Below are positions 40,290-41,310 of a stretch of 64,000 nucleotides of DNA, piece by piece. How positions within the stretch are numbered: the first letter of the stretch is position 1; the number at the start of each line of letters is the position of its first letter. The DNA is from Dictyostelium discoideum (Eukaryota): NCBI GenBank assembly GCA_000004695.1, contig CM000150.2, positions 1,312,001 to 1,376,000 of the forward strand. The letters are read 5' to 3'. A program made the position numbers and the translations under genes. The notes beneath the pieces are model-generated. The model saw only the letters and a program-made list of their open reading frames with translations, did no database searches and was not told the origin of the DNA.

Positions 40290-41310
40290 ATTCATCATTT
40301 GAGTCTGTTTGAATTGTTGGTTAATGTAATTGATACACCTGATTTTTTGGTATAACAATTATTGTAATTTCAATCAATCCAAACAAATGTGATTAAATCG
40401 AAACAATATTTAATATTTGAATGGAATGGAATGGAGAGACATCTGATTGCTCAAATTTTTTAAAATGTGGTAGAATAATCAATTGAACCATCTGAAGTTG
40501 TCTTGAATCCGATTGATTAGACTTGTTTCTTTAATGCAATTTTTCAATAGTTTCAAAAACGACCAGCAACCAACAACGTATAGTGGTAGTATTTGTTCAA
40601 TACCACTATTATCAACTACATCTACATCATTAATAAAACCTTGTCTACTTGGACTTATGATTGGGTTAAACTGAATATTCACCTCAACAATCAACCATCC
40701 AATTTAACAATCTTCTTCAAAACGTTATTCCGCCACCATCTTAACAGTTCAAAGTAAGTTATTAAAACCATACAATCCCAAATATTTCTCTACAAATATA
40801 ATTTGAAATCTTTATTGATATTATTTTTTTTAATTTTTAAGGTTTGGATGATATGGGTCAACAACTAGCTCATAACGCGTATCAAATTCATTCGTTTGCT
40901 AGTGATAGTAGATTATACAATCTTGTTATAAACATTGATACACAACCAACTACATTATTTGATGGTCAAACTACACCAATCACCTCATGACAAGCTATTA
41001 CAGTTTACTCACAACTTGTAAAACCTCAATCAACACTACTGTTGGTGGTTTATTATATACAATTTCAACCTCTGAAACTGGTTTATTTAGTTCAATACCA
41101 CCAGCTACTCTAAATAAAAAGTATCATCACCATAATTTAGGTTCGTAAGATTTAACATCAACTTCACAAAGTTGTTTCACCACCATCCTACACACTATGT
41201 CTTTATTCCAAAATCGCACTACTACTATACAATAATGTATTACCATCTTCACTTTCCAATAGTGTAATATTAATAAAGTAATAAAGTAATAAAATGAAAA
41301 ATAAAGCAAT
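40290..41310 (+). pseudogene. Less AT-rich island carrying decayed, frame-shifted Ser/Thr-rich ORF remnants with an intron-like GTAAGT...TTTTAAG signal (40757-40838); candidate pseudogene or mobile-element relic
   Basis: Local composition is clearly more complex than the flanks. + strand frames give protein-like stretches broken by stops and shifts: ...PLLSTTSTSLIKPCLLGLMIGLN*, GLDDMGQQLAHNAYQIHSFASDSRLYNLVINIDTQPTTLFDGQTTPITS*, and SYYSLLTTCKTSINTTVGGLLYTISTSETGLFSSIPPATLNKKYHHHNLGS*. No intact ORF over 71 aa on either strand. Confidence 0.4.

Follow-up and report, generated by a model that had tools for sequence, protein, structure and literature searches.

The window, a stretch of 64,000 nucleotides from the genome of Dictyostelium discoideum AX4 (contig CM000150.2, positions 1,312,001 to 1,376,000 of the forward strand), contains a GC-richer island of about 1.03 kb at positions 40259–41289, described here on the + strand and lying between two minus-strand genes. 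Its extent was drawn from its presence, by blastn and MAFFT, in five assemblies of the D. discoideum clade, and the borders are good to about 10–30 nt, the flanks on both sides consisting of low-complexity DNA. To the left is the SAPS domain gene DDB_G0268044 (35890–38468, minus strand; chr1 1347890–1350468), whose start is 1.8 kb from the island. To the right, outside the island and convergent to it, is DDB_G0268048 (41351–42182, minus strand; chr1 1353351–1354182), a UPF0172 / EMC8-9 homolog with three exons, the stop codon of which falls about 60 nt from the right edge of the island. The models of these two genes and of DDB_G0268050 given by Rosengarten et al. 2016 (PMC5295588, Files S2/S3) match the ORFs and exon ends in the window exactly when an offset of 1,312,000 is applied.

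The first-pass annotation, made from the letters of the sequence and correct in its guess of Dictyostelium, had described 40290–41310 as a less AT-rich island between AT deserts, and a recount bears this out. The interval has 29.3% GC (A367 T355 C182 G117), against 12.1% over 39290–40289 and 7.2% over 39900–40258 on its left. Nearby exons have 22–27% GC, below the value for the island itself, and over the window as a whole spacers lie at 10–17% and genes at 25–40%. The composition of the island is therefore exon-like, well apart from that of typical D. discoideum lncRNAs (17%) and intergenic DNA (13%). Its 3' end carries an AATAAA cluster resembling poly(A) signals, (TAATAAAG)x2.9, at 41271–41293 on the + strand.

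Within the island, a putative intron-like element of 88 nt and 17% GC, GTAAGT...TTTTTAAG, occupies 40754–40841 on the + strand; it is recognized by its sequence only, and had previously been placed 3 nt away, at 40757–40838. Excision of the 88 nt fuses two open stretches in frame (...TILTVQ-S-LDDMGQQ...) and leaves that frame open for 65 codons. At 40853–40990 on the + strand (chr1 1352853–1352990) the AX4 reference annotates DDB_G0268046, a single-exon model of 45 codons with the translation MGQQLAHNAYQIHSFASDSRLYNLVINIDTQPTTLFDGQTTPITS. This model coincides with the second half of the first of two peptides quoted in the first-pass annotation, both of which are exact and lie in two + strand frames. 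The accompanying statement that no intact gene is present holds in so far as there is no conserved intact gene here, but it passes over DDB_G0268046, which stands in the reference and has a sense RNA-seq signal. The gene calls of a newer D. discoideum assembly include none inside the island.

The intron-like element and the adjoining 45 nt, which provide the ATG and the first 11 codons of DDB_G0268046, together make up a 133-nt segment (40754–40886, + strand) found only in the AX4 lineage, with TCAAA microhomology at its flanks. The segment is absent from L003 and L010, which are two other D. discoideum strains, and from L008, one of two assemblies labelled 'D. cf. discoideum', and the ORF of DDB_G0268046 is absent from the same three. 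With the 88 nt spliced out, the remainder of the segment would amount to an in-frame insertion of 15 codons relative to L010. A further ATG ORF of 53 codons (MTSYYSLL...HHHNLGS; 40987–41148, + strand) has as its sole record P0018, an automatic ORF call on short-read contigs, and the TAA that closes it reads AAA in the other strains. Upstream, at 40419–40435, a (GAATG)x3.4 microsatellite gives rise to a run of ATGs ('MEWNG...'), and the number of its units varies by strain, putting the short ORF downstream into different frames.

The translations had been taken for protein-like remnants of a decayed ORF rich in Ser and Thr. In AX4 they are no better than chance, since the best frame contains 17 stops over 986 nt, a result equalled by 71% of dinucleotide-preserving shuffles (P=0.71). 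The S/T/P-rich look of the translations follows from the composition of the + strand, which is A/T-rich with C in excess of G. The longest ORF of the island, 71 codons, is on the minus strand and begins with TTG, and the 45 codons of DDB_G0268046 are ordinary for this composition, the longest ORF in shuffled sequences averaging about 65 codons. An intact ORF is found in none of the strains, and the open frames that exist differ from strain to strain. Variable sites are spread evenly over the codon phases (13/13/18 and 23/16/21), and only about one third of the gap runs are divisible by 3. Depletion of stops reached P=0.034 in L008 alone, a value that is not significant after testing four strains, and there is none in AX4. 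An ancestral ORF reconstructed through L008, with seven stops in its best frame of which 4/7 are strain-specific or polymorphic, is on the same figure no more than suggestive. With no ORF conserved among the carriers, the island appears to evolve free of coding constraint.

The syntenic locus was located through the UPF0172 orthologues in eight other assemblies and compared. The order UPF0172 to SAPS is kept at all nine loci. The island is present in AX4 (identical in L001 and L004), in L003 and L010, and in the two 'D. cf. discoideum' assemblies, L008 and L009. At the syntenic site D. citrinum, D. firmibasis, D. dimigraforme and D. purpureum lack the island, and none of the four retains any residual similarity there. 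The spacer from the UPF0172 stop to the next alignable sequence measures 95–207 bp in the three close species, as compared with about 1.2–1.3 kb in D. discoideum. In a neighbor-joining tree of the single gene UPF0172 the carriers of the island form one clade, with D. citrinum as its sister, so that a single gain accounts for the pattern most parsimoniously, the alternative being at least three losses. The distribution is thus best explained by acquisition of the island after the split from D. citrinum and before the radiation of the D. discoideum clade.

The locus varies in structure among the carriers. L003 and L008 have lost part of the island's middle, and L009 carries about 3.1 kb of unrelated DNA in place of it. 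That insert (7155–10294 of L009, D. cf. discoideum, GCA_054859235.1) has among its annotated ORFs one of 106 aa (P0016) and one of 141 aa with acidic EGD repeats; neither Pfam domains nor similarity to the other loci compared were found in it. The site gives the appearance of a hot spot of structural change. Short + strand genes have been called at this place in three sister assemblies: P0015, with a 31-nt 'intron', and P0017 on the island itself, and P0016 on the L009 insert.

In aligned blocks of the island AX4 differs from the other strains by 10–14%. The corresponding figures for the adjoining UPF0172 gene are 3.4–5.9% for introns, 2.6–3.1% for third codon positions and 1.7–2.0% for the whole gene, so the island diverges roughly three times as fast as the introns and third codon positions next to it. 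Amid this divergence the four-strain alignment contains three blocks that are invariant in 29/30 columns. One lies at the 5' end (40294–40323), the second near the 5' end (40368–40397) and the third at the 3' end (41232–41261), the last of these holding a TAA common to all strains. Substitutions that could be polarised number 13 from GC to AT and 14 from AT to GC; the counts are small, and a ratio of 3–4:1 would be expected. Mutation-accumulation lines have a tenfold per-site bias towards AT and an equilibrium GC content of 9.2% (PMC7466956). The polarised spectrum speaks against AT-biased decay as the cause of the fast divergence, and together with the three invariant blocks it argues against reading the island as mere neutral junk. 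Should the same pattern of rate and composition be general to other GC islands, it would matter beyond this locus.

Transcription of the annotated segment is documented in the data of Rosengarten et al. 2016. In rRNA-depleted stranded RNA-seq (PMC5295588, File S3) DDB_G0268046 has low expression on the + sense strand with a peak at 8–12 h of development, the averages from hr00 to hr24 being 4.5, 1.4, 2.9, 1.3, 8.4, 18.7, 12.6, 4.1, 7.6, 0.3, 0, 0 and 0; these figures cover the 138-nt annotated model and about 40 reads. A second library method (File S5), probably earlier poly(A)-selected libraries, likewise places the peak at 8–10 h, and the reads listed in File S7 are 40 sense and 8 antisense. 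Other than the reference gene, the lncRNA survey of the same study has no transcript model on the island. A lncRNA model, CUFF_167_1 / DDB_G3974451 (39380–39876, + strand; chr1 1351380–1351876), with 14.9% GC, lies 400 nt upstream, and its expression is correlated with that of DDB_G0268046 at -0.41. Searches of the window with Rfam covariance models gave nothing at the gathering score. A box C/D snoRNA on the minus strand was rejected, the best candidate, snoZ169, scoring 24.7 vs 55 bits in a part that is not conserved. A structured RNA was rejected as well, because predicted folding is no more stable than that of shuffled sequences (z = +0.38, -1.07 and -0.11). On the basis of the 138-nt model, the island can be described as transcribed and without a conserved ORF, two traits of intergenic lncRNAs, a class that also calls for transcripts of at least 200 nt.

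Relatives of the island were sought at the protein and the DNA level. P0015, a 104-aa ORF annotated in a sister strain, represents the most open version of the island's 3' third, and an exhaustive phmmer search with it over 1.84e9 representative proteins yielded nothing beyond P0015, P0017 and P0018, all of them ORFs of this same locus. An earlier result without matches, obtained with X-joined three-frame queries of 1029 residues, was discarded, since those queries missed P0015 despite a local phmmer E value of 3e-19. Pfam gave no match with the frame-corrected + strand frames of AX4, L003, L010 and L008 or with the longest minus-strand ORF. A tie to S/T-rich cell-surface gene families found no support in either the search with the 3' third or Pfam. 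No second copy or paralogue occurs within the 64-kb window. Three independent short-read contigs extend across the right border into UPF0172 and match the window at 100% identity, which argues against a high-copy repeat; the island is apparently single-copy. A foreign origin was also discarded, since phages, plasmids, viral contigs, metagenomes and prokaryote genomes all failed to give a match. A processed pseudogene does not fit an island that in AX4 contains an intron-like element, has no poly(A) tail and has no parent in the P0015 search. An internal periodic repeat of 210–240 nt was likewise set aside, Smith-Waterman scores against shuffles giving z = 2.4–3.2 with one pair not significant.

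The explanation we prefer, to which we would give a probability of roughly 0.55, is that the island is young DNA confined to a single locus, now a decaying orphan gene or gene fragment that gives rise to low-level, non-coding developmental RNA and encodes no conserved protein. Along the stem leading to the D. discoideum clade, once D. citrinum had branched off, a piece of DNA would have entered the spacer between UPF0172 and SAPS. The island would now be transcribed as a small unit on the + strand, convergent to UPF0172 and comprising an A/T-rich upstream region, the two invariant blocks near the 5' end, and the third invariant block with the AATAAA cluster at the 3' end. Such a unit would yield a low-abundance RNA peaking at 8–12 h of development; DDB_G0268046 and the other short ORFs would be strain-specific accidents free of coding constraint. 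The likeliest history would be that of an orphan gene, or a fragment of one, in decay, its RNA now non-coding. What suggests this history is the exon-like 29% GC together with the intron-like element and the poly(A) signals. A coding past has weak support in the stop counts given above, and the locus may also never have been coding; the term gene fragment is drawn from the composition, and no parent or source sequence was found. The extent of the unit and its presumed lack of function likewise go beyond the 138 nt for which RNA was recorded.

The first-pass annotation had proposed a pseudogene or a relic of a mobile element. The idea of acquired DNA with no coding constraint and no conserved intact gene survives; nothing ties the island to a mobile element. 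A non-autonomous DNA transposon or truncated retroelement, inserted with a target-site duplication and then decayed, would account for a lineage-specific insertion of about 1 kb and for the structural instability of the locus, in which L009 has its further 3.1 kb of unrelated DNA. It would also account for a direct repeat of the form A(n)TAAAG[T/C]AATAA at both flanks (left copy A(n)TAAAGTAATAA at 40238–40258, right copy AAATGAAAAATAAAGCAATAA at 41292–41312), of which the empty site in D. citrinum has one similar copy. By eye this makes a good candidate target duplication, but among AT-rich control pairs 18% do as well; as a mark of insertion the repeat is a weak lead, and it could equally mark a deletion. 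Otherwise, hallmarks of particular Dictyostelium elements were not seen. TRE elements integrate within about 50–100 bp of a tRNA gene, according to the account in PMC3159450, and ARAGORN found no tRNA genes in the 64-kb window. Frames tested against Pfam contained no remnants of TRE5/TRE3 ORF1/ORF2 (endonuclease, reverse transcriptase), nor any integrase or transposase domain, and in place of the A-rich 3' tail of TRE5/TRE3 there is an AATAAA-rich end with no poly(A) tail. Long terminal direct or inverted repeats of the kinds found in Skipper, DGLT-A and DIRS-1 were not seen either, as the earlier remark on missing LTRs had it; the island with its surroundings, like the window as a whole, has repeats of low complexity only. 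Terminal inverted repeats as in DDT, Tdd-4/5 and thug would have to be the sole pair spanning the borders (40112–40156 / 41330–41374, 78%), which is AT-rich and no better than chance, and the right arm of which falls in the region of the conserved UPF0172 C-terminus and stop. With no second copy in the window and the right border crossed unbroken by three short-read contigs, a mobile-element relic is an unlikely source. [quoted passage not shown] This would call for at least three near-identical independent losses (in D. citrinum, on the branch of D. dimigraforme and D. firmibasis, and in D. purpureum) in place of one gain, and no leftover similarity is seen in any of the four empty sites, so that we consider it very improbable.

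The main rival to a decaying orphan gene is a functional young lncRNA gene, transcribed from the + strand in development, whose end blocks would be promoter, processing or binding elements and whose GC content would be held by selection. Sense-strand expression with a developmental peak in two library methods, a missing conserved ORF, three 29/30 blocks surviving amid 10–14% divergence, and polarised changes with no AT-biased decay against a mutational bias of 10:1 (PMC7466956) are all as this reading would have them. It accords poorly with a GC content far over the 17% median of D. discoideum lncRNAs, with folding of no excess stability and with very low expression. Nor would one expect of it a bulk that evolves some three times faster than the introns nearby and a middle that is deleted in L003 and L008 or replaced in L009; the lncRNA survey, too, has no model on the island past the reference gene. 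On balance we regard functional lncRNA as possible but rather doubtful. A micro-protein gene, in which the 45-aa product of DDB_G0268046 or a longer spliced product is translated and functional in AX4, can point to a reference-annotated model with sense-strand RNA and to the 65 open codons obtained on removal of the intron-like element. Against this, L003, L010 and L008 do not have the segment that supplies the ATG and the first 11 codons, the ORF is common to no other strain, codon-phase signal and Pfam matches are wanting in the frames tested, and a length of 45 codons is unremarkable beside the shuffled average. We hold it to be very unlikely that the annotated protein is real; as a protein gene DDB_G0268046 is probably spurious, and its annotation as coding is doubtful when the ORF is lost even between D. 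discoideum strains. A more far-reaching proposal is that the island is a new clade-specific developmental RNA locus or proto-gene, with its ends under purifying selection, its body turning over fast and its exon-like GC kept against the 10:1 mutation bias towards AT. We think this improbable; if true, it would imply either selection on the transcript or a local hot spot of recombination or GC-biased gene conversion, neither of which is known to have been reported in Dictyostelium, and otherwise this is an ordinary orphan locus.

Among known systems, the developmental intergenic lncRNAs of D. discoideum (Rosengarten et al. 2016, PMC5295588) resemble the island in being intergenic, of low abundance, timed, strand-specific, about 0.5–1 kb long and devoid of a conserved ORF. 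The island differs from them in its 29% GC, as against the class median of 17%, and its overlap with an annotated 'coding' model kept it from being called a lncRNA. The neighboring lncRNA region around CUFF_167_1 aligns at 70–75% with D. citrinum, D. firmibasis and D. dimigraforme, unlike the island, which is lineage-restricted and fast-evolving. The dutA RNA is an abundant, 1.3-kb 'development-specific but untranslatable' transcript of D. discoideum. By description, the island is like dutA in being a developmentally regulated transcript of about 1 kb with short ORFs only, but it differs from dutA, which is abundant, in that its RNA is near the detection limit. The idea that the two are identical was dropped, as the present locus is annotated DDB_G0268046 and not dutA, the RNA named in PMC3540418. 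Unitary or orphan pseudogenes and 'proto-genes' share with the island an exon-like composition, an intron-like element, poly(A) signals and weak transcription, along with strain-specific stops and frameshifts and no homologues; the island departs from them in having no intact version in five lineages and no parent gene, and its ORF-remnant statistics are not significant. With the transposons of Dictyostelium (TRE5/TRE3, DIRS-1, Skipper/DGLT, DDT, Tdd-4/5, thug) it has in common that it is an insert of about 1 kb, restricted to one lineage, in an AT-rich spacer, with a possible short flanking duplication; a tRNA target, terminal repeats, a poly(A) tail and remnants of transposon proteins are absent from the island, and there is no sign of multiple copies. 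The island is a dated gain of DNA that, in a genome both very compact and AT-rich, already gives developmentally timed RNA, and it would offer a small, tractable case for the birth or death of orphan transcripts and genes in social amoebae.

Two further observations concern other parts of the window. DDB_G0268050 (42807–43529, minus strand; chr1 1354807–1355529) is an orphan ORF of 240 codons that is nearly silent in RNA-seq (values 0–1). Strains of the D. discoideum clade share only 74–86% amino-acid identity in it and D. citrinum 67%, and it was not found at the D. dimigraforme and D. purpureum loci, which makes it a second fast-evolving element beside a gene that is 99% conserved. Near the right end of the window, a near-identical pair of peptides, KLQEYCDKYEIKL[A/V]AYSP, is encoded on the minus strand at 59775–59828 and 62246–62299, about 2.5 kb apart, and indicates a tandem pair of related genes.
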